Positions 1 through 14,646 of a DNA stretch of 14,646 bases are shown here, piece after piece. Made by a program: the position numbers and the translations under genes. The stretch lies in IMG/VR virus record IMGVR_UViG_2718218127_000001; one strand, written 5' to 3'. Source of the stretch: a virus. Lineage: Duplodnaviria > Heunggongvirae > Uroviricota > Caudoviricetes. The notes below the pieces were generated by a model. The model searched no databases. It saw nothing but the letters and a program-made list of their open reading frames with translations, and had not been told where the DNA came from. Position 1 is the stretch's first letter; every line of letters begins with the position of its first letter.

Positions 1-825
1 CTATTTCTTCTCTGTAATTTTTACACTGTTTTCCAACTGCTTGATGCTGACCTGCGGGGTCGGCAACTCCTCAGGCATGGTTCCGCCAAGTTCCTGAATG
101 GTTTGCCTCACCTTGCGACCCACGTCAAAGTGTGTGGTGTTTGCTTGCTGTTTTGAATTCACGCCATCCCGCTTGAGTTTTTCTTCTGTTTGGGTAGCTC
201 GAAAGAGATTAGCCGCCAGTTCTGTTGAACCCATATGATCCAGGATCTTCTGATTCTTTTTCAGCCCCTTCCGCTGATGAATAGCTTTCTGATCTAATCC
301 ACCATACAGCCCCTGGTAACCATGATTCTGAAATATGGCGAAATCAGTAGCTGTCGCTACCCCAGCTTGCTGTGCTGCCTCAACCAATTGTTTGTTATGT
401 TCTTTCAACTCATTTCTCAGAAACAGACGCTTTTCGTCTTCACGAAGTTGCTTAAATGCTTCATCGTCAGCAAGCTCCTGCCGTCGGGTCTGGATAGCAA
501 AATAAGTCTGCCCTGCCGCAATGACCGGTTTCGCAGGGTCGCCGTTTTGTACTACCAGGTAACAGGCATAGCGGGAGAGTACGATGTCTTTTAATGCTCT
601 TTTGGCATTTGAGCCAATTTTGACCATATCGAGGATCTCCTCGAAATGGTCATCAATTGTGTGACCACTGTTCTCACAGGCTTCTTTGGCGCGCGTTAAT
701 ACAGGTATAAAGTGACGATACTCTGAATAACCCAGTAGTTTCCCAAGTTGTCTTGCTGACCATTGTTCTGCTCCGTTTGCATTAATCAGTTTTATCTCTT
801 CAAAAGGTTGATGATGTTCGTTCAT
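1..825 (-). CDS. dinD: DNA damage-inducible protein D (DinD-like), 274 aa from the internal ATG
   Basis: Track ORF 1..837 (-). The protein from MNEHHQPFEEIKLINANGAEQW matches my recollection of E. coli DinD. The track's extra MEWA residues are read across the Shine-Dalgarno (GGAGTGGG) that sits upstream of the ATG at 823-825. A LexA box lies about 46 bp upstream. Confidence 0.7.
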   Translation of the reverse strand: MNEHHQPFEEIKLINANGAEQWSARQLGKLLGYSEYRHFIPVLTRAKEACENSGHTIDDHFEEILDMVKIGSNAKRALKDIVLSRYACYLVVQNGDPAKPVIAAGQTYFAIQTRRQELADDEAFKQLREDEKRLFLRNELKEHNKQLVEAAQQAGVATATDFAIFQNHGYQGLYGGLDQKAIHQRKGLKKNQKILDHMGSTELAANLFRATQTEEKLKRDGVNSKQQANTTHFDVGRKVRQTIQELGGTMPEELPTPQVSIKQLENSVKITEKK

Positions 826-870
826 TGCCCACTCCATGTGATATCAATTGCAAAGAAAGTAAATCTGTAA

Positions 871-886: not shown

Positions 887-1268
887 TTGTGAGTATCTCA
901 CGTTCTCAGTGTGCTGGGCAAAAAAACATCGCAAAATCTGGAGCAGGCACGCAAAACAGAATTGAATGTTGCGGGGAAGAAAAATGCCGCTCTGTTTGAG
1001 TGGCGGCATTTGTGAAGGCGGAAAAGTAAGAATTGGCGTTACGAGTTATTCGATGTTGAATCTGTTTATTGAGTAGTGGCTTTAAATGCCCGTGGTTGCT
1101 GTGTTTCTTGTAATGCGTTTTCTCAGTAGGTACACCCTTGTGTACACGGTATTTTGAGGTGCTGTCTTTGGCTGCTCGTTTTATGCTCTCATGCTTGCTG
1201 TTCTGGCCTCTTATCTTTTGCGCCTTATTGTATGATAGTGCTATCCCACAATAAGGAACCTGCCAGCT

Positions 1269-1628
1269 ATGAGAATGACCAGCCGCAAAAAAGAGATACT
1301 TAGCTACTTTGAACCGGATAACCTCGAATGGGTGACTGGTGAGATTGGTGCGCCGCCGTTCGATGTGTCGGGTGTGGCCTACCTGCTTCATGGCATGGTG
1401 TCGTTCGATAAGCGCCACCAGATCGAATCAACCCGGCGCACACTGGAAAGCATGGTTGCTGGTGGACTGCTTGAGCGGGTGACAGTGTATGAATCGCGCC
1501 AGATACGGCGCGGCGGTGATACTAACGCAACGGTCGTGCGCTACGGTTTACCCGGTCAGTGCGCTGTTATGCGCGATACTGGCGGCGCTGATAACGCAAT
1601 ATCAGGTGAATACATGCGGGTCAGTTAA
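1269..1628 (+). CDS. hypothetical protein, 119 aa; the only plus-strand gene, divergent from dinD; may be the distal island gene or chromosomal
   Basis: Track ORF with ATG start at 1269 and AAGGAA upstream. No family recognised. Confidence 0.45.
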   Translation: MRMTSRKKEILSYFEPDNLEWVTGEIGAPPFDVSGVAYLLHGMVSFDKRHQIESTRRTLESMVAGGLLERVTVYESRQIRRGGDTNATVVRYGLPGQCAVMRDTGGADNAISGEYMRVS

Positions 1629-1860
1629 TAGCCTGCAATCTGTCGTTGATGCGGCTCAGGTCGTAAACCCGGCGTTCAATATCCAGCATCAGGAAATTGT
1701 GGATCTCGGCCTGCTCAGGATTATCAGACTCTCTGGCCTGTAATAGCAATTCATTGTAACCATGCAAACCGCCTGAGTTTTCCGCCGGGGTGGCGCCTTT
1801 CCCACGCAGGCAGCTAATGGGCTGATTGCTCGTATAGTTACATGTGGAATAATCCCATAT

Positions 1861-2046
1861 CTACCTACGCGGCGCTGGCTTCTTCCACTGGTAGGCAGGT
1901 GCTCGCATCATTTCGCGGAACCTGTCGCGCCGGGCTATATCGGCATTAACTGAGCGTTCTATCTCCCGTTGATCTGCCAGTGTAAGCTGGTGGCCTCCGT
2001 GCTCAAGTTTGGCGATGGTCAATAAAGCTATTTCGCGTGGTGTCAT
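1861..2046 (-). CDS. hypothetical small protein, 61 aa
   Basis: Track ORF with ATG start and an AGAGGG motif upstream. No recognisable domain. Confidence 0.3.
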   Translation of the reverse strand: MTPREIALLTIAKLEHGGHQLTLADQREIERSVNADIARRDRFREMMRAPAYQWKKPAPRR

Positions 2047-2253
2047 ACGTCATACCCTCTGGAAGGATGAAACACGCCCGGATTAAATTTCATTTTTCGC
2101 GGGTATGAAAAAACGATGGGGCGGGCAGTCCTTAAGGCTCAGGGTTGCAGAGATTTGGCCTCCCCCTCCCGGTGATAGTTTATTGCTTGATGTGGACGGC
2201 TTGCTATATTGGCGGCGAATGCAAATTGTCGCAGAAGTCTATCCCGTTCCTTG

Positions 2254-2279
2254 ACGCCCCGTGCGGGCGTTTTGCTTTT
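2254..2279 (+). terminator. putative rho-independent terminator on the plus strand
   Basis: Stem ACGCCC, loop CGTGC, stem GGGCGT, then TTTGCTTTT. The opposite strand has no U-tract. Confidence 0.35.
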
Positions 2280-2889
2280 ACAAAGTCAGGCCAATGCCTC
2301 TGGCTGCTTTCCCCGCCTTACGCTCAACCATGCCCGTGATTCTATCTACTACCGGACTGAATGCCTGCCAGTAAGCCACCTCCATTGCTGACAACTCTGC
2401 CCGCTTCCTGTCAAACGTAGCCCAGCGCATCCCCTTTGGTTTTGGGAACATGCGAATGTCATTAAACAGATTATTGGCAAGGTCATTGCTTCCCCATATC
2501 GCGCATCGCTGCTGGCGTATCTTCATTCGCATCCTGTCCAGTCTGTCGGCGCTCTGGCTTTTATAGTGGAGTTTCCAGCACGCCCGGCAGCCAATATCTT
2601 TCTTGCCGATATACAGCTTTGCAGCCCGTTTCATACAGTGGGGACAAACGTACCATTCCCGGACGCCATACCCGGCTTGTGTGGTCGTGGTTCTGATTGC
2701 CCGTGTAACGCCGTTGATTGTCATGGCGTAGCTGTCGGCTTGCCGGAAGGTATACAACGTTCCGCTTTCGGTCTGGGTATAAAGCTGCGTCCCCGGTTCG
2801 GCGTCCGCCAGCCTGCTACGCATGTTCGCAAGGAATGGCAACCCTATACGGGGCAGGTCGGTGATATAGCTGCGCGTTCTGTCTCTCAC
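2278..2889 (-). CDS. hypothetical Cys4 zinc-ribbon protein, 203 aa
   Basis: Track ORF. The start is GTG, preceded by a perfect AGGAGG 7 nt upstream. Contains CPHC-x14-CRAC (C-x2-C ... C-x2-C). Confidence 0.55.
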   Translation of the reverse strand: MRDRTRSYITDLPRIGLPFLANMRSRLADAEPGTQLYTQTESGTLYTFRQADSYAMTINGVTRAIRTTTTQAGYGVREWYVCPHCMKRAAKLYIGKKDIGCRACWKLHYKSQSADRLDRMRMKIRQQRCAIWGSNDLANNLFNDIRMFPKPKGMRWATFDRKRAELSAMEVAYWQAFSPVVDRITGMVERKAGKAARGIGLTL

Positions 2890-2992
2890 TGGCGGGCCTC
2901 CTGCGAATTACTGCGCATTAACTGCGAACGGTGCGCAAAAATGAATGCGAAATAATATGCGTATTTTACTGTAAATTGCGCACTATTTTGCG

Positions 2993-3110
2993 CACTGCGA
3001 ACCAATGGCGCGAGCCAGAATATTTTGGACTGCCTAAATCGAATATGGCTTCCAGCCCGCTACTGGCGCGGTTCTCTCTTCATATGGGCTTTGAGTCTGT
3101 CCAGTACAGT
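2993..3110. repeat. regulatory repeat block A (copy 1 of a duplicated ~80-110 bp module)
   Basis: Shares with block B a conserved stretch of the form ACCA-TGGCGCGA-CCAGAATATT-TGG ... CCTAAATC ... TTCCAGCC ... CTGGCGCGG, followed by a CTGT-N5-ACAG dyad (about 3097-3109). Preceded by several TGCGCA hexamers. Confidence 0.6.
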
Positions 3111-3143
3111 CCAGTATTTCAACATCGGTGACTATACGGATTG

Positions 3144-3521
3144 CTAACATGCGCCGTTTTTTTTAACCCTTCGCAGATCCCGCCTTGCTTGCATTGAAAC
3201 GGATCTCGCTAAACTCAGCTCAAGCCGTGCGATTCTGTCGGCATGTAGCCCCATGAGTCCGTTAATCAATGTCATCTCGCGCCATTCTTCTGTTCCCGGC
3301 GTCGGATTAGTCGCCAGTAATAGCCCGTATCTCTCAGCCATCATGAGGTTTCTTGCACGATTTCGCACCAGCGGAGAAAGCGCATCTTCTCCCTCAAACG
3401 GGAAGAATGCCCGCCTACTGCGTTCGCCATGTTTGACGGCATTAGTATTGCCCAACGGTGCGCCTGCGCCTTTCCGCTTGCCACCCCATCCGGATCTTGA
3501 TTGTTGGCTATTTTTTTTCAT
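3144..3521 (-). CDS. hypothetical basic protein, 125 aa; possible small-terminase-like or packaging-redirecting protein
   Basis: Track ORF with ATG start. The N-terminus GKRKGAGAPLGNTNAVKHG resembles motifs I associate with small terminase-type DNA-binding proteins; this is from memory and unverified. Confidence 0.5.
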   Translation of the reverse strand: MKKNSQQSRSGWGGKRKGAGAPLGNTNAVKHGERSRRAFFPFEGEDALSPLVRNRARNLMMAERYGLLLATNPTPGTEEWREMTLINGLMGLHADRIARLELSLARSVSMQARRDLRRVKKNGAC

Positions 3522-3575
3522 TTAACGGCTCACTGTGCGCAAAAACCCTAACTGAATGCGCGGTTTTGCTGCGTA

Positions 3576-3705
3576 CCTGACTGCGTACTGCGTACCAGTG
3601 GCGCGAACCAGAATATTCTGGACGACCTAAATCACGCTCTGGTTTCCAGCCCTCTGCTGGCGCGGGTTTAGCGCTACTTGGGTTTAAAATCTGTCAAGAA
3701 CAGTC
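3576..3705. repeat. regulatory repeat block B (copy 2), upstream of the 125-aa gene
   Basis: Contains the perfect 14-bp palindrome CCAGAATATTCTGG (about 3608-3621), a CTGTCAAGAACAG dyad (about 3691-3703) and CTGCGTAC repeats. It is the direct-repeat partner of block A. Confidence 0.6.
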
Positions 3706-3735
3706 TAGAATTTTAGCCTGCGTTCGGTGCGAACC

Positions 3736-4086
3736 TCACGGCACAGACGAGTACCAGTAAAAGCCTGTTAGCCCGGCATCGCAGCGCTCACGATTAAGCA
3801 CACGTGGCGGGTTTTCTCTGGTCATCAACTCAAGCAAGGCATTGCTTCCCTGCGTCTCCAGTCGGTATTGCCTGTCGGTAGTGGTAATGGCATCCGGCAA
3901 TAACTTTATGGCGGCCTGGCTAAAGTCTCGCGGTGCGCCGTAAAATTGCGCATCAACAATATGAACCACATCGCCGTTAATCGTTGTCCGATAACGGTCT
4001 GGCTGTATAGTAAAGCCCCCACAATGGATAGCAGATAGTGCCGGTGCCGATGAGATCAGGACGGCTGCCAGAATGTATGGCTTCAT
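3736..4086 (-). CDS. hypothetical secreted protein, 116 aa
   Basis: Track ORF with ATG start and GGTGGGTGA upstream. The N-terminus MKPYILAAVLISSAPALSA looks like a Sec signal peptide. Two Cys residues. Its start overlaps the upstream stop as ATGA. Confidence 0.55.
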   Translation of the reverse strand: MKPYILAAVLISSAPALSAIHCGGFTIQPDRYRTTINGDVVHIVDAQFYGAPRDFSQAAIKLLPDAITTTDRQYRLETQGSNALLELMTRENPPRVLNRERCDAGLTGFYWYSSVP

Positions 4087-4724
4087 TCTTCACCCACCAA
4101 TTCATCCAGTTCAGCCAGCGTCATAGGCTTTGGTACAGGCTTGTCAATATCACCCATAATGCGCTGGAAGTTTCTGGCAGGCATATGGTTACGGTTCTCC
4201 AGTATTTTCGCCAGCGCGATAACATCCCACCATTTCAGGGCAATCAGCGCCTCAGCACGGGAAAGTGATATTCTCTGTATATCAGCATCCTCTCCACCAG
4301 CCACCCGGTATACCTCTGATAAATCACGAACATTTTTCATGTCTGCTTTCCCGGACGTTTCCATCAGTGCGTTAATATCATCCCCCGTATAGCGTGATTG
4401 CGCGACGATACCAGCCAGAGAGATAACCATATCCCGGCATACCTGGTCTATCAGACGTAATCTGGCGTCATCGTTCGAGAGGGTGTAAGACTTAACCTCA
4501 GCCACATTCCGTGGATAGTTGGCGTGCCATACCGCGACGGCTCCACACTCATCAACATCGCCGCTAAGGTAGGTTTTTGCCACTCGGTTATTACCCGATA
4601 ACGCAATTTCTACCTCCTGTATGCCGAAAAACCATGCGGCTATCGCATGACCTGCTTCGTGTATTGCGAGATGTCTGGGCCAGCGATAGCTGCCTAACTC
4701 GATAATGATGGGTTGCGTACTCAT
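4083..4724 (-). CDS. putative zinc metallopeptidase with an HEAGH motif (FtsH/M41-like active site), about 213 aa, no AAA+ or transmembrane region
   Basis: Track ORF 4083..4781. I prefer the internal ATG (MSTQPI...) because the longer form overlaps the SSB-like gene by 47 nt and the internal start has GAGAGGGAA upstream. The motif IHEAGHAIAAW is identical over seven residues to the FtsH zinc-binding signature. Confidence 0.5.
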   Translation of the reverse strand: MSTQPIIIELGSYRWPRHLAIHEAGHAIAAWFFGIQEVEIALSGNNRVAKTYLSGDVDECGAVAVWHANYPRNVAEVKSYTLSNDDARLRLIDQVCRDMVISLAGIVAQSRYTGDDINALMETSGKADMKNVRDLSEVYRVAGGEDADIQRISLSRAEALIALKWWDVIALAKILENRNHMPARNFQRIMGDIDKPVPKPMTLAELDELVGEE

Positions 4725-4734
4725 ATCTTCCCTC

Positions 4735-5196
4735 TCAGAATGGCGTTTCATCGTCGAATGGTGGGCGTTGGTCAAAATCATCAGGGGTATTATATAACTC
4801 CCATCCCGGCGCGGATTGTGTTGTGTGGCCCCTGCTGGCTCCGCTTGCTTTGACTGATTCGGCCCGCTTCCCGCCGGGGCGTACCGTTCTGGCGCTGATC
4901 ACGCTGTCGGCTACTACCTGATAACCTTGCTGTGTACCGCCATCCTTGCCCGTCCACTGATTGATCTGCATCGCTCCGGCAACACTGACTAAATCGCCTT
5001 TAACGTGTCCTGCCAGTGCGTCGGCCTGTTTGCCGAATGCCACCACGCCCAGCCAGAAAGTAACCTCTCCGCCCTCTGCTGTATGGCAGGGCAGTGCCAC
5101 CGCTAACCGTCCCATTGCCATGCTTGTACCGTTCGTTGTGGTACGGGTCTGGGGATCTGCCACCAGCCGCCCGTATGCTGAAATTTGTGCTGTCAT
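4735..5196 (-). CDS. single-stranded DNA-binding protein (SSB-like OB fold with acidic C-terminal tail), 153 aa
   Basis: Track ORF with ATG start and GAGGAA upstream. The pattern W..VVAFGK.A......KG..V.V.G.....W....G......VV parallels the E. coli SSB core, and the C-terminus ...PPFDDETPF resembles the SSB ...DFDDDIPF tail. Confidence 0.65.
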   Translation of the reverse strand: MTAQISAYGRLVADPQTRTTTNGTSMAMGRLAVALPCHTAEGGEVTFWLGVVAFGKQADALAGHVKGDLVSVAGAMQINQWTGKDGGTQQGYQVVADSVISARTVRPGGKRAESVKASGASRGHTTQSAPGWELYNTPDDFDQRPPFDDETPF

Positions 5197-5495
5197 AGAT
5201 ATTTCCTCATGTAGTCACTACCTCCGGGGATAATTTTCATTTCTTCCCTTAAAGGCCACTGCTCCGCCATTGCTGCGGTCGAGTGATTCCCGTCATCACG
5301 TCCGGCCTGTGCTGCCGTCCAGTGTGTTGCATATTCTGTAAATCCAATTTCTGCTGGCTGCCTCATCCAGTGGGCGATCATCCTCAAGGTCATTTGCAGG
5401 CTTTGGGTGTCGCCCTGTAATGCGCGTTTGTCAGTAAACCCCTTCAATGCTTCACGCTCCTGATAGGTCATTTTCTGGCTGGTTTCTGTATTCAT
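5193..5495 (-). CDS. hypothetical protein, 100 aa; first gene after the origin
   Basis: Track ORF with ATG start and GAGGTG 5 nt upstream. Its stop overlaps the SSB-like start as ATGA. Confidence 0.5.
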   Translation of the reverse strand: MNTETSQKMTYQEREALKGFTDKRALQGDTQSLQMTLRMIAHWMRQPAEIGFTEYATHWTAAQAGRDDGNHSTAAMAEQWPLREEMKIIPGGSDYMRKYL

Positions 5496-5548
5496 TGCCC
5501 ACCTCGTTATAAGCTACCCCCCCCATAGAATCTTTTTGGGGGTGTAAT

Positions 5549-5800
5549 ATCCCTACCAATCCCTACTAACTGGCTCAGGCCACGAATGGCAAGGCTTTCA
5601 GACTGGTAGACATTCAATTTTGTTGCCCTACATAACCCTACTTATCCCTACTAAATCACTTCAACGGCATTTTACTGCCTGTTTTATTTGGTAGGGATAA
5701 GTAGGGATAAGTAGGGATAAAAATATATATCCCTACCTAGTTTAAAGCCTTGCTACGTCTGGCCTCGTCTCGTTTTTAGTAGGGCAGTAGGGATAAGTGC
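5549..5800. repeat. iteron-type replication origin
   Basis: At least 11 copies of a TAGGGATAAG / CCCTAC core with 10-bp phasing: inverted-orientation copies near 5549-5566 and 5626-5651, three perfect tandem GTAGGGATAA units at 5691-5720, an AT-rich stretch AAAATATATAT, then further copies near 5731 and 5779-5796. Lies immediately 3' of the primase gene. Confidence 0.7.
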
Positions 5801-5813
5801 CGCCGTAAAAGTT

Positions 5814-8255
5814 TCAATCATCACTCTGCCCGCTCTCCACACCGTAAGCGCGTGGCATGAACTCCTCAGCCTTCTCGTTATAGCCAACGTTGGTTTGCGC
5901 TCTGCCGTTAATGCTTCTCGTCAGGTAGCTGGCTCGGTACTCTTTTGCTGCTGATTTTATGGCGCGTGAAAACTTATTGACGGAAAGCGGTTTACCCAAA
6001 CCGTGATACTCCATAAACGCCAGATAAAGATGATAAAGATACGTCCTCGGCTCTGGCTGGCCTGCCCATGTACCTCCGCCCATCATCATGCCTTTGGGTT
6101 CGTTCATGAAAAAAAGCGCCGCACACATATCGACAACCGGATCCGTGCCGCGTTTAACCTCTAGCGCCTCCTGCGAATCGCGCTGCTCTAGTAATAGTGC
6201 CTTTGCTTTGTTCTGGTCGGCAAAGGTGGTTAGCAGGTGGCGGATAATCACCGGGATTTCTCGCCTGATTTTTGCGGTTAAATCCGGGTCTTTGTCTGCG
6301 TCTGATACCGGGTTATTAAACGGGAATATCACGCGGCGGCGGGCAATGCCCCCGTTTCGCTCCGTGAATGTCATTGGCTCGTTATTGGTTGCCATAACAA
6401 CGGCATTTATCACGGTTGTGAACTGCTTTTCATATTTCCCATCAATCTCTACCGGATCGCCGCCCGTAATGGCTTTAATCCCCGCACCCTCTCCAACGTA
6501 GCGGGTCTGGTCAGGCATAATAATCAGGCTTTTCCCTACGAACTGCGCCCGTCCCCGTGCGGTGTCCAGCGTCATCATGCTACCGCTGGCGGTGTTGTGT
6601 TCACCTGCCAGCGTGGTTGCTATGCTGCTGAATACGGATTTCCCACTGCCGCCCTCGCCAGTTATCTCAATGAATAGCTGCCAGTCGTGACGCTTCGCCA
6701 GCACCATAAACAAGGCTGCTTTGATACGCTCGGCCTTATGATGGTCGCCAGCCGTTGCATGATTCAGCCAACGGGTAAAATTGGGGGCGCTGGTGGAAAT
6801 ATTCTCCCCCGGCGCTGGCGGGGTGTAGGTGATCCCATTGTGGTTCATCAGCCAGTTACCCGGCGAATGGGCGGAAAACGTCTGCGTAGCGAGGTCATAA
6901 ACGCCGTTATCAAAACCAATCAGATCCCCGCTCCGCTCACCAATTACCGGTATTTGCAGCTTCATGGTTGCGACAACCGATTTAATCCCTTTTTCGGTGT
7001 AGTGGGCTTCGTGCTCGTCGAAAATTGCCACCATAACCCTTTCTAATTCGCTGTCTGGTAGCTTCACCCATACGCCAGATTCGTAGCAGTAAACAGCGCC
7101 ACTATCAGGGTTGACCGCCAACATATCCCAGCGAGATGAAAGCAACCGCGCTTTCTGGCTGGCTGCCATTTGTGCAATATCTCCGACTTCGGCTTTACGG
7201 CGGGATTTACCGCCCACAATGGCCTGTAGTTGTGGTTTCACGGCTTCCCCCTGAATCTGGTACATCGAATCGTTAAACGCAGCCGTAGCGACTTCCAGCC
7301 CGTTTTGCTGGCGGTAGTCGTCCCAGTCGGCTTTGTAGTCTGTCGGCGGCAGCGCCACCCAGCCAGCCACGGATAAGGCGGCTTTCTCTGCGGCATCTTT
7401 GCCCGTGTTCGCCTGTTCGTCCTGCTGGTGGTCGTTATCTGCGGCAATGATAATTTGCGACTGCGGGTGTTTCCGGCGCATTACTCCGGCAACGTGGATC
7501 AGGTTCCCGGCGTCAATTGCCGCCACTGTAAGCGCGTCCGGGCGCATCAGGTGAACGGACAGGGCCGTCGCCAGCCCCTCGGCAATTAATACGCTCTGCG
7601 GCTGTTCTGGTGCGTTTACGGCGTGATATGCCCCGCGCTTTGCTGAACCTGTCAGGAGTCGCTTCTCTCCCTGCGGTGTAATGGTTTGCGCTGCTGCCAC
7701 TGCGCCGGATTCGTCCACCAGCTCCAGCAATAACGAACCATCCGGCATAACCGGATAGTTAAACCCGGTCAGCCCTTTTGATTGCAGGTAATCAGATTCT
7801 CCCTGTGTGGCACTCTGGCGCATTCCGGCATACAGACGGGCAAACGTAGCCCTTCGCTGCTCTGCATCCTCTGCTGCCTGTTTCTGGCGCTCCTGCTCAC
7901 GCTGCTGGCGGTCAGCTTCCAGTTGCTCTCTTCTATGGCTCGCTGCCACCGGGTCGGTTTGCGCTGCCCGGTAATCAATACCCAGCACATCAGCGGCAAG
8001 CTGTGCCGCCTCCGTAGTGTCGCAGTTGTTCACCTTCTTAATCAGGTCTAAACCGTCACCAGCGCCACACTGATTGCAGATAAAGCTACCGCGCCCGTTG
8101 TCGTCGAATCTGAAACGGTCTTTTCCACCACATGCAGGGCATGGAGAATGGCGGCGCGATGAATCAGGCACGTCGATAGACAATCCAGCCAGCACATAAG
8201 GCCAGCGCCCGGCGGCGGCACTGGTCACTTCGCGGATAAGGTCGATATTACGCAT
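5814..8255 (-). CDS. P4-alpha-like bifunctional DNA primase/helicase, 813 aa
   Basis: Track ORF with ATG start. N-terminal zinc ribbon CPACGGKDRFRFDD...FICNQCGAGDG, a central TOPRIM-like region, and a C-terminal NTPase with Walker A GEGGSGKS. Confidence 0.88.
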   Translation of the reverse strand: MRNIDLIREVTSAAAGRWPYVLAGLSIDVPDSSRRHSPCPACGGKDRFRFDDNGRGSFICNQCGAGDGLDLIKKVNNCDTTEAAQLAADVLGIDYRAAQTDPVAASHRREQLEADRQQREQERQKQAAEDAEQRRATFARLYAGMRQSATQGESDYLQSKGLTGFNYPVMPDGSLLLELVDESGAVAAAQTITPQGEKRLLTGSAKRGAYHAVNAPEQPQSVLIAEGLATALSVHLMRPDALTVAAIDAGNLIHVAGVMRRKHPQSQIIIAADNDHQQDEQANTGKDAAEKAALSVAGWVALPPTDYKADWDDYRQQNGLEVATAAFNDSMYQIQGEAVKPQLQAIVGGKSRRKAEVGDIAQMAASQKARLLSSRWDMLAVNPDSGAVYCYESGVWVKLPDSELERVMVAIFDEHEAHYTEKGIKSVVATMKLQIPVIGERSGDLIGFDNGVYDLATQTFSAHSPGNWLMNHNGITYTPPAPGENISTSAPNFTRWLNHATAGDHHKAERIKAALFMVLAKRHDWQLFIEITGEGGSGKSVFSSIATTLAGEHNTASGSMMTLDTARGRAQFVGKSLIIMPDQTRYVGEGAGIKAITGGDPVEIDGKYEKQFTTVINAVVMATNNEPMTFTERNGGIARRRVIFPFNNPVSDADKDPDLTAKIRREIPVIIRHLLTTFADQNKAKALLLEQRDSQEALEVKRGTDPVVDMCAALFFMNEPKGMMMGGGTWAGQPEPRTYLYHLYLAFMEYHGLGKPLSVNKFSRAIKSAAKEYRASYLTRSINGRAQTNVGYNEKAEEFMPRAYGVESGQSDD

Positions 8256-8589
8256 GGTTGCCTCCTGCCACGGTCGCGCCCATGTCTTTAACCATGCTTT
8301 GCCATATCTCGCGCCCGACGTCAGTCAATCCGTCCTTAGTGACGCAACGCTCAAGAAGCTCGACCCCCACGGTTTCCCACTGCGGGTAGGACACTTTCAT
8401 GGCTGCCAGTGTGTAGCTATCGATCAGGCTGCGAACGCCTTTTACTCCATTGACGATTTCCACACGGACGGCGAGGCCGTCCGCATCAACCATGAAATAG
8501 TCCCCGCCGCTGGTGGAGGTAATGTGGTTATACAGTGCCGACGCATATTTATTAGCCAGCGCATTCAGTCGGAAATTTTTAGTAATCAT
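8248..8589 (-). CDS. hypothetical protein, 113 aa
   Basis: Track ORF with ATG start and GAGGGG upstream. Overlaps the primase start by 8 nt. Confidence 0.55.
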   Translation of the reverse strand: MITKNFRLNALANKYASALYNHITSTSGGDYFMVDADGLAVRVEIVNGVKGVRSLIDSYTLAAMKVSYPQWETVGVELLERCVTKDGLTDVGREIWQSMVKDMGATVAGGNHA

Positions 8590-8597
8590 GTCGCCCC

Positions 8598-9224
8598 TCA
8601 GTGCGGCAGCGGCATTTCAGGCCAGCCGTTTTCATCCAGTTCAGCTATAAAGCTGTTGTGAAGTTCAGCAAGCGTTTCACGTCCGAACGGGGTAAGCTCG
8701 CCGCGCTCCGTATCCAGCATCGCCTTATAAAACACAATGGCTTTTTCCGTACCCTGTTCGACGCCGTATCGCTCAATCATTGCGCCCTCGATGTTGTTCG
8801 CCATCGCCAGCCGTTCAGCAAACGGGTAAATCACCATGCCCGCATTACCATTGGAGTAAATCGCCACCTGCGATGTTGTGCCGTCAGCCTCCGTGACGGA
8901 GGTTGTGCCGTTTTCGCGCTTCATTTCAGAAACGAACTTCGCAGCAATCAGCCAGCGCCACATAGTGACGTTATGCTGCGCGGTAAAGTCGAACCAGCCA
9001 CGCGCCCCGCCATCAGCAACGGCAAAATGAATGGCGTAGCCGATATCTGGCGTATCGTCGTACTCTCCCGCATCCAGACGGCTTACAGCGCTCTCATAGG
9101 TGATAATGGCTACATGCTCATACATCCCGGCATCATTGCGGGTCATGATGTTTACGCCGTGCGGTGTGGCTTCGGCGTGTAATAAGTCGGCATTTCCCGA
9201 TTTAATGGTCGGTGCGTTGCTCAT
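8598..9224 (-). CDS. hypothetical protein, 208 aa
   Basis: Track ORF with ATG start overlapping the upstream stop (ATGA). No domain recognised. Confidence 0.55.
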   Translation of the reverse strand: MSNAPTIKSGNADLLHAEATPHGVNIMTRNDAGMYEHVAIITYESAVSRLDAGEYDDTPDIGYAIHFAVADGGARGWFDFTAQHNVTMWRWLIAAKFVSEMKRENGTTSVTEADGTTSQVAIYSNGNAGMVIYPFAERLAMANNIEGAMIERYGVEQGTEKAIVFYKAMLDTERGELTPFGRETLAELHNSFIAELDENGWPEMPLPH

Positions 9225-9484
9225 GCGCTGCCCTCCGCATCAATTCTGGCTATATCGACAATCGTCAGGACTTTACTAAGCCAGCAATACACGATTTCGG
9301 CCTGTTCATCGTTTAGTTGAGTGGCTAAATCGGTCATAACGTGAGCCAGCCCATTGCGGGCGCGGGTCATGCGTTCTGCCGTTCGGTCTGCCAGCGTAAA
9401 ATCATCCGGGTAAGCCTGCTCGCGGGATAACATCGCTTCGGCTTCCAGCTCTGCCGGGTGGCGATAGATGGTAGTTATGTTCAT
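9221..9484 (-). CDS. hypothetical acidic protein, 87 aa
   Basis: Track ORF, part of the coupled operon. Confidence 0.45.
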   Translation of the reverse strand: MNITTIYRHPAELEAEAMLSREQAYPDDFTLADRTAERMTRARNGLAHVMTDLATQLNDEQAEIVYCWLSKVLTIVDIARIDAEGSA

Positions 9485-9795
9485 TTGCCCGCCCTCCCTT
9501 TGGCTTCTTTTTCACTGATTGAGCGCAAGAATGCGGCGTTTGCAGCGCTATCGTTCAGCGCCCGCGCAACTTCTCCGATATGTCCCAGCATTGCGCCTAA
9601 TCTGTACATATCAGCCCTAACGCTTTCCGCCGGGTAGTCATCGCTATTAGCCGCCCAGAACATGAGGCTACCGATGGCACTTACGCCCAGCATTAAATCA
9701 TTCACGGCATCACTGGCGCGGCTCTCAATTCCGTTCAGATCATCAGGTGTACAACCATCAAAGTCGCAGGACACTAAATCGTTATACAGGCTCAT
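9481..9795 (-). CDS. hypothetical protein, 104 aa
   Basis: Track ORF with ATG start overlapping the upstream stop (ATGA). Confidence 0.45.
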   Translation of the reverse strand: MSLYNDLVSCDFDGCTPDDLNGIESRASDAVNDLMLGVSAIGSLMFWAANSDDYPAESVRADMYRLGAMLGHIGEVARALNDSAANAAFLRSISEKEAKGRAGK

Positions 9796-9971
9796 GCTGC
9801 CACCTCACGAACGCGGGTAATCTGGATGTGGGAAAGGCGTTCATTTCTGGCCTGATTTAGCGCCTCAGCTTTGGCGCTGATCGCGCTGCGGGCGTCAACG
9901 ATATAAACGAACTCGACTAATTCGCCGCTCCGGGCGGTGGCGCATCCTGCAACACGGAAGTAATTAAGCAT
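9792..9971 (-). CDS. hypothetical small protein, about 59 aa from the internal ATG
   Basis: Track ORF 9792..10001 begins with TTG. The internal ATG (MLNYF...) has AGGGGG upstream and overlaps the preceding stop by 8 nt. Confidence 0.35.
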   Translation of the reverse strand: MLNYFRVAGCATARSGELVEFVYIVDARSAISAKAEALNQARNERLSHIQITRVREVAA

Positions 9972-10155
9972 GTGCGCCCCCTGTGCGAATACGTCCGGCA
10001 AAAAAGCAAACGTGATCCCGCGCCAGAATGCGGCGGGCTTCCTGCTCAGTCTCTGCGGCGATATGGTGAATTTTGGCGGTAATTGTCGGCATATCGCGGC
10101 GAACTGCTGCGATAATCCAGATAAATTGCGGTTTTTGGGTAGGGGTAGTAGCCAT
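9964..10155 (-). CDS. hypothetical small protein, 63 aa; first gene of the replication-module operon
   Basis: C-terminal part of the track's 250-aa GTG ORF. It has an ATG with a strong AAGGAGG 8 nt upstream (MATTPTQKPQ...). Confidence 0.45.
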   Translation of the reverse strand: MATTPTQKPQFIWIIAAVRRDMPTITAKIHHIAAETEQEARRILARDHVCFFAGRIRTGGAHA

Positions 10156-10182
10156 TATGGCAGCCTCCTTTGTGTTTAAGGA

Positions 10183-10221
10183 GTCACCGCCTGAGTTTCC
10201 ACGCTCTGAAATGGCGGTGAC
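10183..10221 (-). promoter_or_regulatory. stem-loop in the 5' leader of the replication-module operon
   Basis: Inverted repeat GTCACCGCC ... GGCGGTGAC (9-bp arms, about 21-nt loop). On the minus strand it is followed by TCCTT, which could pair with the AAGGAGG of the 63-aa gene. Confidence 0.3.
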
Positions 10222-10345
10222 GTTAGCAGGGGTGGAAATACCGGACACAAAGGAAACCGGCCTACGCGAACGTAGCCCCACTAACGCCACCATAGATACA
10301 GTACGGACGAGGCCGCTGATTTGATGTGCGTAGTGATCGGACACA

Positions 10346-10367
10346 AAAAAAGACGCTTTCGGCGTCT
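10346..10367 (-). terminator. putative rho-independent terminator on the minus strand
   Basis: Minus strand reads AGACGC-CGAAA-GCGTCT followed by TTTTTTT. It sits between the regulatory module and the replication module. Confidence 0.45.
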
Positions 10368-10654
10368 GTGTCGCCCTTAGTGTGTTCGGGTTTCCACGCC
10401 CGGTTGCTGATTTTGCAGCAACGCTTGGACTATAACAGCTTTTCTCTGCTAGGTGGTCATACCAGATAAAACCGTAACCCTTTAAGAGTTTTTCCTGTGC
10501 ACGGCTCACCATCTTTTTGTTGAGGGTAAGCGCCTCGCGTACTGGTAACGGAACTCCGGGCGCTGCGGTATCAATATCAGGTTTTGTAAGGTTGCAGATG
10601 TCAACTTTTGACAACATGCCAGCCAGATTAAAGGCTTCTTTCTGGGCGGCAGGT

Positions 10655-10837
10655 TCATTCAGTATCACGGCGCACCTCCACGAACTCATTAACGAATCTC
10701 TCCAAAGGCTGAACACATGGCGACTGATAGCCCTCGCGGTAAAAGGTCACTCGGTTATGCTCGACGCGCTGTACGGTCACTACAGCCCCGTGACTGTCCT
10801 TGTAACGGCTTCCCGGCATCGGATTATGGTTACGCAT
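10655..10837 (-). CDS. hypothetical small protein, 60 aa
   Basis: Track ORF with ATG start and GGAGGT 6 nt upstream. Overlaps the upstream stop by 8 nt. Confidence 0.5.
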   Translation of the reverse strand: MRNHNPMPGSRYKDSHGAVVTVQRVEHNRVTFYREGYQSPCVQPLERFVNEFVEVRRDTE

Positions 10838-11663
10838 GGTTTACCTCCAGACGTTTAGCGAGCCAGCGCTGAGAGAGGCGGATTAGCTCGGCTTTACGCA
10901 GGTCATATCCCATACCCATATCAATTAACGTGATATTGGTGCTTTCGAGATAGGCGAGGTGTTCAAGCTGTGCTGCGTTCATGCTGTCCCGTGGTTCGCC
11001 AGTAATGCCATTTGCCTGCGCCCACTGCTTCGCCGTCATGCCACCCAGCACGATACGGGCGATCATGTTGCTCTCGTTGCTGTAGTGGCGCTGCTGCGTC
11101 GTTTTACCCTGCTCGGCACGGGCCATATTCAGCGCATCGCACATTGGCTTAAAGTTGTTTGCGGCACTGATACGGGCTTTTAGCTGGCGACGATAGCGGG
11201 CGGCGATTTCAGGCACGCTACGCTGTAATTCTTCCTCGCACTGGATGAAATAACGGCGGATAGCGCGGCCCTGTTCGGTGCGTTCGACCATCGCCAGTTC
11301 TTTCGCCATTCCGACACTTAACAGATAGTCTTTGCCGGGTCTGCCAGACTGTTTAATCTTGCTGTAAGCCGCGCCATTCGGGCTTTTCCCCAGATTTGGG
11401 GAAATTGTTTTATGGACTGAGTAATCGTGCCCAATGGTGAAGTCATATTCAGAGATGCGATCAGCGATCCATGTAGAGAAGTCTTTTCCCACGCCCAACG
11501 CTTTGTGTAACGCTTTTGCGCTAACAATATTGGTTTCACGCCCACCGATATGACCAGGAATAACCGGGACAATTGTGGCAAATTCATTACCGTTAATTGT
11601 TCCCTGATAGGCGTTCAGATGAGGGGCGGCCTCAGAAATTAATCTGCTTTTTTCGATGTTCAT
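10830..11663 (-). CDS. phage antirepressor-like regulatory protein (AntA/KilAC-like), 277 aa
   Basis: Track ORF with ATG start and GGAGA upstream. The segment DYLLSVGMAKELAMVERTEQGRAIRRYFIQCEEEL resembles phage antirepressor / Bro-KilA type proteins; this assignment is from memory. Confidence 0.45.
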   Translation of the reverse strand: MNIEKSRLISEAAPHLNAYQGTINGNEFATIVPVIPGHIGGRETNIVSAKALHKALGVGKDFSTWIADRISEYDFTIGHDYSVHKTISPNLGKSPNGAAYSKIKQSGRPGKDYLLSVGMAKELAMVERTEQGRAIRRYFIQCEEELQRSVPEIAARYRRQLKARISAANNFKPMCDALNMARAEQGKTTQQRHYSNESNMIARIVLGGMTAKQWAQANGITGEPRDSMNAAQLEHLAYLESTNITLIDMGMGYDLRKAELIRLSQRWLAKRLEVNHA

Positions 11664-11675
11664 TTTCAGTCTCCG

Positions 11676-12110
11676 TTAGGCGGCGGTGAGATTGTCCGGG
11701 TATAGGTTGAGAATGTCGGCAATTTCAGGCTGAGAAAGTCCCTGATAGCCGCCAGCGTCGGCGTTATGGTTCACAAGCCGAATAACTTTCAGAACGTCAC
11801 CGCGCCCGGTAAAGCGATAGCGTAAATGTGACCCTATCCCGTCGGGGTTCTTTTCGTCTATACGCTCAAGCTGAATATCAAGCCTGCGCTCTAACTCACT
11901 GGCGTAGTTCCTTCCAGACGAAAGGCGGCAATAACGCAGAATGTCGTTTTCTGTCCATCCCTCTACGCCAGTACGCAGCATATAGACGCGGGCGCGGTGT
12001 TTCTTTGGGGTTCGCTTAGGTACTTGTACCGGGCTGGTGGTCGGCGTAATATCAGACGTGCGAATATCTGAGTTAGCCGCCTGCTGTACGGGGCGGTTTT
12101 TCTTTTTCAT
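11676..12110 (-). CDS. hypothetical basic protein, 144 aa
   Basis: Track ORF. Its ATG overlaps the alpA stop (TAATG), so it is translationally coupled to alpA. Confidence 0.5.
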   Translation of the reverse strand: MKKKNRPVQQAANSDIRTSDITPTTSPVQVPKRTPKKHRARVYMLRTGVEGWTENDILRYCRLSSGRNYASELERRLDIQLERIDEKNPDGIGSHLRYRFTGRGDVLKVIRLVNHNADAGGYQGLSQPEIADILNLYPDNLTAA

Positions 12111-12313
12111 TACGCCACCTTTCCCCGGCGCTCCGCCAGCCAGTTGTGAATATCAGCCGCATCAAAGGCGGTAATCTTCTCGCCCAGCTTTACCGGACGT
12201 GGTAGTGAACCGTTTCTTACTTTACGGTCGATGGTGGATACACTAACGCCCAGCAATTCAGCCAGGCGAAAGCGTCTGATATAGCCTTTTGTAGGGATAG
12301 TGTCGATGTTCAT
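12110..12313 (-). CDS. alpA: AlpA-family (Vis/excisionase-like) HTH transcriptional regulator, 67 aa
   Basis: Track ORF with ATG start and AAGAGG upstream. The helix-turn-helix LAELLGVSVSTIDRKVRNG and its small size and position next to a P4-type integrase are typical of AlpA/Vis. Confidence 0.72.
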   Translation of the reverse strand: MNIDTIPTKGYIRRFRLAELLGVSVSTIDRKVRNGSLPRPVKLGEKITAFDAADIHNWLAERRGKVA

Positions 12314-12425
12314 GATTCCCGTAACCTCTTAGCGATAGTTGTTGCTTCGTTACGGGTATTTAATGGTGTGTATGCTCAAAAGTGAATTACAGTAAATTTT
12401 ATTGTCACGATACTAAATTTTATTA

Positions 12426-13271
12426 TCATGATTTCTTCTTTCCTGCCGTGGTACGTTTTTCCGGCAATCTGTCCATGTCAGATATGATCTTCTTTAAATA
12501 ATCTGCAGATGGTTCATCATAATCGCCACCCACATGTGGCCAGTGGTCTATCGTAGCGTTTGCCCACGCTTCGTTGGTTTCTTTCCCGTTTTTCCCTTTG
12601 CACTCTTCAGGATAGTGCCGTTTCACATAAATCAACGCCATAATGCTATTCTCACGGTTTAGGCTATGTCGTGCTCTATTTCCATGCTCTATGTTTTTAA
12701 ATTCCTTTTCATAAAGATCGTGTGAACCCAAATGGAGTATGCTGGATATTGGCTGATTTTTATCCATGCTTTCAGCTATATATTCAACCCACGGTCTTGA
12801 TATATACAAATCTTCCACAGACGATACGGTGGTATCATATTCGCGAAAATCGTAGAAAAAGTAACATCCTGATGTGATGTCTAGTTCTTTTTTTATATAT
12901 GCTGGTGAGAATATGAGTGGAATGTCAGGGACTCTCTTAACCCCTGCAAGGGAAGCAATGAAATCTCTAGGAACGTGCCATAATCCACTTGCTGAGCACT
13001 TCATACCATCGAAAAAACCTTCATTTAGATATCTTTCGGTATCTTCTCTAGTAGAAATAATAGAACCAAATAATAAGTTTTCTATGCCTTTGCTGCCGTG
13101 GTCTGGTGGCAAGTTTCCCACTTGAAGGAGTACGCCTTCATACTTGTGAATTATTGTGCTCAAAAATATAGAGCCTGATACTCCCATAAGTAGAAGATCA
13201 TCGACTTCTATTTCTAATAAATTTGCTGCTCTATTAAGTCGGAAAAAAAGATTTGGTGGTAGTTTTTTCAT
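12426..13271 (-). CDS. hypothetical orphan cargo protein, about 281 aa, AT-rich
   Basis: Track ORF 12426..13286 begins with GTG. The ATG five codons in (MKKLPPN...) has AGGTGA upstream. Base composition is visibly more AT-rich than the flanking genes. No family recognised. Confidence 0.6.
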   Translation of the reverse strand: MKKLPPNLFFRLNRAANLLEIEVDDLLLMGVSGSIFLSTIIHKYEGVLLQVGNLPPDHGSKGIENLLFGSIISTREDTERYLNEGFFDGMKCSASGLWHVPRDFIASLAGVKRVPDIPLIFSPAYIKKELDITSGCYFFYDFREYDTTVSSVEDLYISRPWVEYIAESMDKNQPISSILHLGSHDLYEKEFKNIEHGNRARHSLNRENSIMALIYVKRHYPEECKGKNGKETNEAWANATIDHWPHVGGDYDEPSADYLKKIISDMDRLPEKRTTAGKKKS

Positions 13272-13386
13272 TGCGTCACCTTTCACGCTACGCCTTAATG
13301 AGCGATTGAGTCAGGCGGTAAGGCTTCCCGCTTTTCACCCCGTCGGGCTAGACTCAATCTGTCCTCTGATTCTTTACATATCTTGG

Positions 13387-14646
13387 TTACTTCGCCTTTC
13401 TCAGCGGTGTAACGTTGTATTCCTGCCCCTGTTCCAGTGCCACCAGCAATCCCGCCCACTGTGTTAACGCGGCCCGGCGTTCATCAAAGTATTGGTGGCG
13501 GTTATAGATACCCTCCACGCCTTTAATTTTGTGGTTGAGGCATCTTTCAGCCACTACGGGATCAACGCCCAGCGCGGCTAAATGGGTGCGGGCTGTGCGC
13601 CGGAAGTCGTGAATAGTGAAATTCGGCACGTCCGGCATTTCAGCGCGAACCTTAGCCAGTGCTACGGGTAAAGTGCTTTCCTGAATATGTGGGATCATGC
13701 GGTTTTGCATCTTTCTGGCTGGCAGTACCCATGCGCTGTTGCATGAGAACGTTTTAAGCTCTCTCAGCCATTCGACGGCTGGCGGTGCTAATGGAATGTC
13801 TATAGCGTCGCCGTTTTTGCTGCGTTCCTCTGGCAAGCGCCATACGGCTTTATCAAAATCGAACTCCTCCCAGCGGGCGGCGCATAACTCCATTTTGCGG
13901 ACGCATAACGCTAACAGTAATTTGAACGTGATTTCGTTCTGGCGACTGAATCCCTTAGCCGTGCGCATGGCTTTGAATAGCTGGATTAACTCATCGCGGG
14001 TTAACCAGCGGTCACGGGCAACTTCTTTCCCTCCAGCGTCGGCAACCTCAAAGGCTGAACACGGGTTAATCTCCAGTGCGTGCCGCTTAATGCCGTAGTC
14101 AAATATGCGGCGTGTCCAGCGCAGAACGTCCGTTGCTATGGTCGGCGCTCCACGGTCAACAATACCTTTCAGCATGTCATCGATATGGCGCGGCTTCACG
14201 TCCTCCACCTTCATGCTGCCAATGCAGGGGTTTATATCTTTGTCGATACGGCGGCGGAGTATATCGGGGTGCTTCCAGCGCGGAAGGATCTGACGCTCAA
14301 AGTATTCAGCGGCAAGCTCTGAAACGCGCATAGCGTTCTTCTCTGCTTCCATCTTCGCCAGTGCTTCGGTTTTGCGCCTCTGCTTCTCTCCTGCAACGTC
14401 ATAGCCCAGCGCAACGCGAGCCGATAGCTCTTTGGCTGTCTCTCTGGCCTTTGATAGTGATAGCTCGGCATATGAGCCAATCAGCATGGCGCGGGGTTTC
14501 CCTGCGAATTTATAGCGGAATCGCCAGACGGGGGTCTGGTAGTTTTCGCGGTATGAAAGATAAAGCCCGTTACCGTCAGAGCGTCCCTCGAATCGCTCCC
14601 CGGCCTTTATCCATGCGCGGATCTGCATGTCTGTGAGTTTTGGCAT
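13387..14646 (-). CDS. int: P4-type tyrosine integrase, 419 aa; start codon at the window edge
   Basis: Track ORF with ATG at 14644-14646. N-terminal arm-binding-like region (GLYLSYRENYQTPVWRFRYKF) and a C-terminal catalytic region with the HDFRRT...H..Y tyrosine-recombinase pattern. Confidence 0.9.
   Translation of the reverse strand: MPKLTDMQIRAWIKAGERFEGRSDGNGLYLSYRENYQTPVWRFRYKFAGKPRAMLIGSYAELSLSKARETAKELSARVALGYDVAGEKQRRKTEALAKMEAEKNAMRVSELAAEYFERQILPRWKHPDILRRRIDKDINPCIGSMKVEDVKPRHIDDMLKGIVDRGAPTIATDVLRWTRRIFDYGIKRHALEINPCSAFEVADAGGKEVARDRWLTRDELIQLFKAMRTAKGFSRQNEITFKLLLALCVRKMELCAARWEEFDFDKAVWRLPEERSKNGDAIDIPLAPPAVEWLRELKTFSCNSAWVLPARKMQNRMIPHIQESTLPVALAKVRAEMPDVPNFTIHDFRRTARTHLAALGVDPVVAERCLNHKIKGVEGIYNRHQYFDERRAALTQWAGLLVALEQGQEYNVTPLRKAK

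Follow-up and report, generated by a model that had tools for sequence, protein, structure and literature searches.

The window, by which we mean the whole stretch of 14,646 nucleotides analyzed here (IMG/VR virus record IMGVR_UViG_2718218127_000001), represents an island of about 13.5 kb of Escherichia coli S43 (NZ_CP010237.1), which is inserted between dinD and yicC and carries all of its genes on the minus strand. The subject of this work is a gene for a 281-aa protein at 12426-13271 (minus strand), located between int and alpA and hereafter called the slot gene. Directly upstream and co-directional lies int (13387-14646, minus strand), encoding a 419-aa tyrosine integrase with the Pfam domains Arm-DNA-bind_3, Phage_int_M and Phage_integrase. 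The alpA gene (12110-12313, minus strand) encodes 67 aa that match Pfam Phage_AlpA at 1.8e-7 and HTH_17 at 1.1e-6, and it is presumed to be the island's master activator or excisionase-type regulator (PMC6092414). Judging from sequence comparison and structure modeling, the slot protein appears to be a satellite-encoded, modular winged helix-turn-helix (wHTH) protein of an unnamed and rapidly diversifying family. Its members are found at a constant place, between int and alpA, within a clade of P4/PICI-type satellites (PICI, phage-inducible chromosomal island) of Enterobacterales.

The slot open reading frame (ORF) starts with an ATG preceded by AAAGGTGA, and this start context is kept in related loci; an alternative GTG upstream, at 13286, would give a product of 286 aa. 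The RefSeq annotation of E. coli S43 places a coding sequence of identical extent here (WP_073528249.1) under the label "hypothetical protein." An earlier note on this DNA, written from its letters alone, had described the gene as AT-rich and foreign-looking, and composition analysis bears this out. Its GC content is 0.392 and its GC content at third codon positions (GC3) is 0.344, against 0.50-0.58 and 0.50-0.64, respectively, for the island genes at 2278-14646, int and alpA included, while the sliding-window GC drops to 0.385-0.405 over 12400-13400.

Three modules make up the protein: a predicted winged helix at the N-terminus, a hypervariable middle and, at the C-terminus, a conserved helical domain. 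Conservation analysis and AlphaFold2 modeling are based on an alignment of 76 relatives, which raised the predicted local distance difference test score (pLDDT) from 64, obtained with nine sequences, to a mean of 83. The N-terminal domain (codons 1-50, 13122-13271, minus strand) is predicted to be a wHTH of the AlpA/MerR/Xis type, with a strand at residues 9-11, helices at 12-19 and 23-32 and a long beta hairpin from residue 38, all with a pLDDT > 90. The conserved residues within positions 1-40 give the consensus PPxxYxxLxRAAxLLxCExxDLxHxxxxGxI. A profile of residues 1-52 could be aligned with an AlpA alignment in register over about 45 residues (probability 60%, E-value = 8.5e-5), AlpA being its top match among the 19 window proteins, and judging from structure comparison the predicted fold may resemble that of MerR-type wHTH domains and of a phage Xis. 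Foldseek searches against PDB and BFVD returned nothing at E < 0.06. The slot protein does not reach the Pfam gathering score of Phage_AlpA or HTH_17, and HTH_17 was matched weakly by only one of the 76 relatives (E-value = 0.005). These modest but consistent signals point to an AlpA/MerR-type winged helix, so that the statement in the earlier note that no domain can be recognized does not hold for this end of the protein, even if Pfam assigns none. Compared with AlpA, Vis and Xis (HTH_17, MerR superfamily), with which it would share this head, the slot protein is four times longer and has two extra regions.

The middle region (codons 43-175, 12747-13145, minus strand) is beta-rich and conserved only at GLW (96-98) and DLYISR (154-159). 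Its column entropy is 3.3-3.6 bits compared with 1.7-2.4 at both ends; it cannot be aligned across allele classes, and AlphaFold2 confidence is lower there. The C-terminal domain (codons 176-281, 12429-12746, minus strand) is conserved, helical and ends in the basic tail RTTAGKKKS. Conserved residues within 196-270 are H196, R206-E207, C224, W236 and H243, and the pLDDT is 92-98 over residues 201-270, about 97. For this domain no sequence or structure match was found (PDB profile search, Foldseek against PDB and BFVD), nor any among the 19 window proteins; a suspected likeness of its motif to the C-terminus of the island's AntA was ruled out by hhalign (E-value = 0.048, 11 columns). The whole protein had no match in Pfam, NCBIfam, PHROGs, PADLOC or a PDB sequence profile search. 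Pfam gave nothing useful for the 76 relatives and no assignment for five other slot alleles, while phrog_7144, of unknown function, matched 23 of the 76.

Relatives of the slot protein are numerous. A word-indexed search yielded nine clusters from E. coli, Shigella, Leclercia and Enterobacter, and the profile made from them detected 172 relatives at E ≤ 1e-3 (51 at E ≤ 1e-10) among 1.84 billion representative proteins, each relative being a cluster at 50% identity. Nearly all are 260-350 aa long, and many align in two segments, N-terminal and C-terminal. Genomic context was read for nine family members, giving eight distinct informative contexts, as the ninth contig (L022) was too short to judge. 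A tyrosine integrase with Arm-DNA-bind_3 directly precedes the family gene in all eight, alpA is the next gene after it in at least seven, and a primase follows further on where the locus extends far enough. Attachment sites vary, including yicC, mipA and der, and several genera are represented. With at least 172 clusters and a fixed int-gene-alpA order, the gene is not the orphan that it had been taken for. Searches elsewhere were poorer: tblastn against 50,697 phage records gave no slot-protein match, profile scans of genome contigs gave no family relatives, a scan of viral contigs gave two loci only, and no paper characterizing the family was found in the literature. A small ORF between int and alpA of EcCIMP1 was also considered and is unrelated to the slot gene.

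Variability of the slot was studied at the yicC site, where seven related E. coli islands were compared; each has exactly one AT-rich gene in the slot (216-321 aa, GC 0.355-0.425). Together with the window they fall into six distinct allele classes, four of which are clear members when tested with the family profile (E-values from 1e-49 to 1e-80); the allele of L005 is marginal (E-value = 5e-5) and that of L006 unrelated. The earlier expectation that the slot differs between related islands is thus correct, whereas the idea that it carries different genes is not supported, four of the six classes being homologues, so that the slot mostly holds divergent versions of one gene. In L006 (NZ_CP191548.1, 1025-2145), which lacks the int-alpA RNA described below, an unrelated 216-aa ORF overlaps the int stop and is followed by a very AT-rich spacer of 470 bp and alpA; the slot can therefore hold other things too. 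The L003 protein (NZ_CP162161.1, 1139-2062) has its N-terminus and middle in common with that of the window (26% identity over 220 residues) and differs in the C-terminus, while the proteins of L002 and L004 have a common C-terminus (77% identity) and are otherwise different. These comparisons show domain shuffling within the family.

Upstream, the stretch from the int stop (13387) to the slot ORF start contains the inverted repeat that had been noticed earlier (13304-13312/13351-13359), its 9-nt arms being 100% complementary and 38 nt apart. What had been described as structured DNA is a known RNA motif: the repeat forms the outer stem of a three-way junction (13292-13358, minus strand) that is the int-alpA RNA of Rfam (RF02996), matched over model positions 1-71 of 71 with 57.1 bits against a gathering score of 35.8 (E-value = 7.7e-10). 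Taken by itself, the spacer has no unusual fold energy (z = -0.68). In an alignment of six loci, 96.8% of the cells of the three helices are paired, compared with 31-44% in a control with the 3' partners slid by 1-3 columns. Both partners have changed in 7 of the 21 pairs, which means that the junction is kept through compensatory changes. A further small hairpin, GCGU-GAAAGGUG-ACGC (13273-13288, minus strand), displays the slot-gene Shine-Dalgarno sequence in its loop according to the minimum free energy fold; counted over the same loci, 91.7% of its cells are paired, with one-sided changes only.

The motif does lie between int and alpA, yet the 846-nt slot gene intervenes before alpA. RF02996 was found in nine loci (the window, L003, L004, L005, L007, L013, L016, L019 and L022), in each of which some 20 nt separate its end from the start of a slot gene of about 0.9 kb and alpA comes only after that gene. 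In the loci whose slot gene adjoins int directly (L002, L008, L009, L012 and L017) the motif is missing. It is also absent from the experimentally studied PICI EcCICFT073 (L031; strain CFT073, NC_004431.1, 1377930-1379713), which has int, a 365-bp spacer and alpA without a slot gene, so that the Rfam name does not suit the best-known int-alpA junction. Because it is present only about 20 nt before slot genes, the motif behaves as their 5' leader and not as that of alpA, and RF02996 would be better described as the leader of the slot-gene family. If this is true, an orphan RNA gains a genomic role.

Downstream, the 112-bp spacer before alpA (GC 0.33) contains two direct repeats on the minus strand, ATCATGATAATAAAATTTA and ATCGTGACAATAAAATTTA (12393-12432), each an imperfect dyad around AAAATTT. 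The copy ATCATGATAATAAAATTTA (12414-12432) is the first on the coding strand and overlaps the slot-gene stop codon; the second occupies 12393-12411. The tandem repeats noticed earlier at the 3' end of the gene are real, with units not of about 22 bp but of 19 nt, 17 of which are identical, and a period of 21 bp. On the coding strand the order is the stop codon overlapping ATCATGATAATAAAATTTA, GT, ATCGTGACAATAAAATTTA, CTGTAA, TTCACT, 17 nt, TTAAAT and an inverted repeat. No further copy with up to three mismatches exists in the window and none arose in 200 shuffles, a weak control given that the pattern was derived from the data. The repeats are identical in L007. A homologous core, CATGATA..TAATTTTAGTGTAATTCAC, is found in L009, L012 and L013 as a 13-bp palindrome pair, also 21 bp apart; in L009 the core occurs once.

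The arrangement was surveyed in 13 family loci, over the interval between 24 nt ahead of the stop codon and 95 nt beyond it. The best direct repeat is spaced by 20-22 bp in eight of them (the window, L003, L012, L013, L015, L016, L017 and L021), which represent six independent sequence classes with unit sequences unrelated between classes, and in all eight the first unit begins at or just past the stop codon. Many units are dyads, such as ACTAAAAATTAGT and ACTAATTTTTAGT in L012 or GAGTAAC..TTACTC, present twice in L017, and none of the motifs recurs elsewhere in the examined DNA of its locus. L002, L004 and L005 have a single hairpin in place of the repeats, followed by a T-run in L002 and L004. 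The class of the downstream DNA goes with the class of the C-terminal domain.

Following the repeats, a candidate alpA promoter was recognized at 12358-12386 (minus strand), with a putative -35 element TTCACT (12386-12381), a 17-nt spacer and a putative -10 element TTAAAT (12363-12358), a layout that recurs in L009, L012 and L013. The direct repeats, centered at about -72 and -51 of this promoter, are candidate protein-binding sites. The inverted repeat CCCGTAAC-N23-GTTACGGG (12315-12359, minus strand; arms 12315-12325 and 12349-12359, 91% complementary) covers the alpA ribosome-binding region and is conserved across all E. coli loci independently of the slot allele; in L006 its outer pair is compensated. 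It may be either an RNA hairpin or an AlpA-type (autoregulatory) DNA site. If the alpA transcript starts within the 5' arm, as the candidate -10 element would imply, the hairpin would form only in int read-through transcripts and there block alpA translation.

Other identities for the direct repeats were tried and rejected. A P2 Ogr/delta-type TGT-N12-ACA box is not present, only the reverse arrangement ACA-N11-TGT; arm-type integrase sites would be expected to track Int, which the repeats do not, the repeats also being > 2 kb from the attachment site; replication iterons are found elsewhere, at 5547-5798. An IMG/VR search with the 19-mer gave seven scattered single matches in unrelated large contigs, judged to be chance.

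Comparison with two other islands revealed how the region is inherited. Against L007 (strain 19SZHZ803Rt), nucleotide identity is 98.0% for the slot gene and 98.2% for the 112-bp spacer, compared with 91.7% for alpA and 79.8% for int (pS, synonymous divergence, 0.67). An identity scan at 100 bp delimited a block at about 12200-13300 with 96-100%, flanked by DNA at 68-92%, mostly 70-82%. Against L003 the same scan is reversed, the flanks being mostly at 86-99% and the block unalignable; int and AlpA are near-identical there (AlpA 87% at the amino acid level), while slot proteins and repeats differ. The earlier suggestion of separate acquisition is supported by these figures, since an allele of 98.0% identity accompanies an int of 79.8% and a near-identical backbone carries a different allele. 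Since L007 shares both gene and repeats and L003 neither, the repeats track the slot gene and not Int or AlpA. The alignments indicate that about 1.1 kb (12200-13290) has been exchanged as one unit, which runs from the first third of alpA through its promoter region and the repeats to the slot gene, with one edge between the slot-gene Shine-Dalgarno sequence and the int-alpA RNA and the other inside alpA.

The same comparison bears on the possibility that the slot protein is an accessory factor of integration and excision, namely a second Xis/AlpA-like directionality or architectural protein acting with the integrase. Its predicted N-terminal fold may resemble Xis and AlpA, and the gene is directly downstream of int, in some alleles only 4-20 nt past the int stop. 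Yet a 98%-identical allele is paired with integrases of only 79.8% identity and near-identical integrases with unrelated alleles, and a role of this kind is unlikely because the slot gene does not co-evolve with Int. In addition, the candidate sites are > 2 kb from the attachment site, which is upstream of int and outside the window, and known excisionases are much smaller than this protein of about 300 aa with its variable middle. We consider this explanation very unlikely.

Substitutions between the window and L007 alleles are unevenly distributed along the gene. Nonsynonymous and synonymous changes number 0:1 in codons 1-42 (pN/pS, the ratio of nonsynonymous to synonymous divergence, 0), 11:1 in codons 43-175 (about 3) and 2:2 in codons 176-281 (0.25). 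Small as these counts are, they suggest purifying selection on the N- and C-terminal domains, the middle having 11 of the 13 nonsynonymous changes. Of 5426 complete E. coli genomes, 38 carry the window allele (nucleotide identity 97.8-100%), and its ORF is intact in 37 of these. This persistence speaks against unrelated orphan cargo or a decaying remnant with incidental flanking repeats, a view that could draw on the lack of any database annotation and on an AT-richness typical of recently acquired or silenced DNA. Together with the selection at both ends, the 172 clusters with conserved synteny and the covarying upstream motif contradict it; family, synteny and selection data largely refute the remnant idea, to which we assign a very low probability.

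The explanation that we favor, tentatively and at a little less than an even chance, is that the slot protein is a sensor-regulator of alpA. The slot gene would share a transcript with int, and the int-alpA element would form its 5' leader. Its product, probably in the form of two dimers, would bind the two allele-specific dyad-like sites. These are 21 bp apart, start at the slot-gene stop and would precede the start of a weak candidate alpA promoter by about 50 and 70 bp. Binding would set whether AlpA, the island master activator, is made, either by repression (occlusion, or a roadblock to int read-through) or by activation from a class-I-like position. The variable middle would be the input that ties the alpA decision to a particular helper phage or host signal, as Stl does in Staphylococcus aureus pathogenicity islands (SaPIs). 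This fits best because of the predicted DNA-binding head, the synteny, the leader, the co-transferred two-site element and the hypervariable middle, conserved ends with a changing middle being the expected pattern for a fixed output with a changing input. The fact that the swapped block takes in the alpA promoter region also supports it. Gram-negative PICIs have AlpA as an activator and no known global repressor, and the factor through which helper phages induce alpA transcription has yet to be identified (PMC6092414).

Several observations weigh against a sensor-regulator of alpA. EcCICFT073 is inducible by helper phage (PMC6092414) while having neither the slot gene nor the RNA, which makes the slot module optional. 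The slot gene is co-directional with alpA, unlike stl. The candidate alpA promoter matches the consensus at 8 of 12 positions only, which is why a consensus promoter scan missed it. L012 and L013 share the C-terminus and the downstream sites while their N-terminal HTH sequences differ; the sites therefore track the C-terminal class, or mere linkage, and not demonstrably the wHTH. The repeat pair of the window could be a neutral 21-bp tandem duplication of the core that is single in L009, the downstream hairpin of L002, L004 and L005 may be just a terminator, and the pN/pS contrast is drawn from 17 substitutions.

The earlier note had placed the gene among accessory or anti-phage functions, and this alternative must be weighed against the sensor-regulator. 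The slot protein would then be an accessory anti-phage or helper-interference protein whose middle senses a phage component, allele turnover would reflect an arms race, and the wHTH would autoregulate or bind phage DNA, as CapR of the phage-inducible chromosomal island-like element (PLE) represses a helper gene. Published work places immune systems of PICIs at the 5' or 3' ends of these islands (PMC11364771). The slot gene is AT-rich, horizontally shuffled and optional, being absent from EcCICFT073, its middle is hypervariable with a pN/pS of about 3, and its place in the int operon would lead one to expect expression in the quiescent state. Like PICI 5'-end immune regions and P4-like hotspots, the slot is integrase-proximal and is exchanged between islands through recombination in conserved flanks. 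On the other hand, PADLOC (PADLOC-DB 2.0) gave no match for the slot protein at E ≤ 1, none that was meaningful among the 76 relatives, and for the five other slot alleles a best match to PDC-S31 in one allele (E-value = 0.002), which is not meaningful either. Library and structure searches detected no effector-like domain (nuclease, NTPase, TIR, Sir2, membrane or other). Defence hotspots, those of P4-like elements included, usually hold many unrelated systems, whereas one family monopolizes this slot and the swapped block includes the alpA promoter region; the two-site architecture by that promoter and its co-transfer with the gene would also be left unexplained. The variable, integrase-proximal slot on which the defence proposal was founded does exist, and the proposal is unsupported rather than refuted. 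The downstream repeats beside the candidate alpA promoter indicate regulation at least as much as defence, and we regard an anti-phage or helper-interference role as less likely than not, though a serious rival.

Among known systems, Stl and Rpr of SaPIs and Gram-positive PICIs offer a parallel for the proposed sensor-regulator. They too are encoded next to int and combine an N-terminal HTH with a divergent remainder that varies between islands, and the slot protein might gate the island switch in response to the helper by analogy with the role of Stl (PMC6092414). They differ in that nothing more than a generic HTH was detected to relate them in sequence or fold, and in that the slot module is optional in Gram-negative PICIs. 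A predicted-HTH protein does stand beside int, whereas the divergent transcription of the Stl type, with operators between the promoters, was not found: the slot gene is co-directional with the gene that it would regulate and the candidate sites are upstream of the -35 element. Immunity repressors of the P2 C type act at a promoter on two half-sites in direct repeat, spaced by about two helical turns. The sites of P2 C flank the -10 element, while those proposed here lie upstream of the -35 element, and homology is not claimed.

A broader proposal, which we consider unlikely, is that the family as a whole represents the so far missing master regulator, analogous to Stl, by which a large clade of Gram-negative satellites senses its helpers. 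The winged-helix and C-terminal domains would hold the two alpA-promoter sites and the middle would bind a helper-phage protein. The int-alpA RNA would control slot-protein synthesis, thereby acquiring its first function, and gene, operator and promoter would be swapped together to change helper specificity. How Gram-negative PICIs sense their helpers is an open question (PMC6092414), for which the slot protein is a testable candidate input in one large clade. Should defence or helper interference prove to be its role instead, it would constitute a previously unrecognized one-gene system with a DNA-binding head, overlooked in present defence catalogues. Either way, the "hypothetical protein" label of about 170 clusters could be replaced by a family definition.

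The remainder of the island agrees with the setting of a Gram-negative PICI. Such elements have four zones, namely integration, Bro, replication and late (PMC10111431), and the window fits this scheme, with co-directional int, alpA and primase, Bro-type, replication and late zones, and RNAs in the Bro zone. After alpA comes a 144-aa ORF (11676-12110, minus strand), followed by AntA, DUF4222, an Ash/Icd-like gene, several small ORFs, a P4-family primase (5814-8255, minus strand) and SSB. The genes by which SatelliteFinder recognizes P4-like satellites (psu, delta and sid) are absent from the RefSeq annotation, and the ORFs in 906-5495 have no Pfam match except SSB; Only three features are P4-like, namely the C4 RNA, the primase and the Ash/Icd-like gene. 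Base 12110 is shared by the alpA stop and the beginning of the 144-aa ORF (overlap region 12107-12113), which suggests translational coupling of the two genes. A counterpart of this ORF in two related islands (H13 and H17) is annotated in RefSeq as "PM1773 family protein."

Three further Rfam matches lie on the minus strand, namely a C4 antisense RNA (10210-10297, 81 bits), an isrK RNA (10346-10422, 72 bits) and a set of c4-a1b1 target sites (10383-10435, 55 bits). They constitute an RNA immunity module of the P4/P1 type (10210-10435) within or beside the Ash/Icd-like ORF, and the same trio is present in L009, L012, L013, L016, L018, L019 and L021. The 318-bp gap downstream of the primase gene contains at least ten copies of a 10-bp unit, (A/T)TCCCTAC / GTAGGGAT, at 5547-5798, in both orientations and often spaced by 10 bp. 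These iterons are probably the replication origin of the island, and the region also gave spurious MIR5070 matches on both strands. The first window ORF (1-837, minus strand) is the host dinD, which has a Bro-N domain; the left end of the island is therefore at about 840-1270. Finally, a truncated pseudogene of the IS1096 passenger TnpR family is annotated in RefSeq at about 1622-1834.

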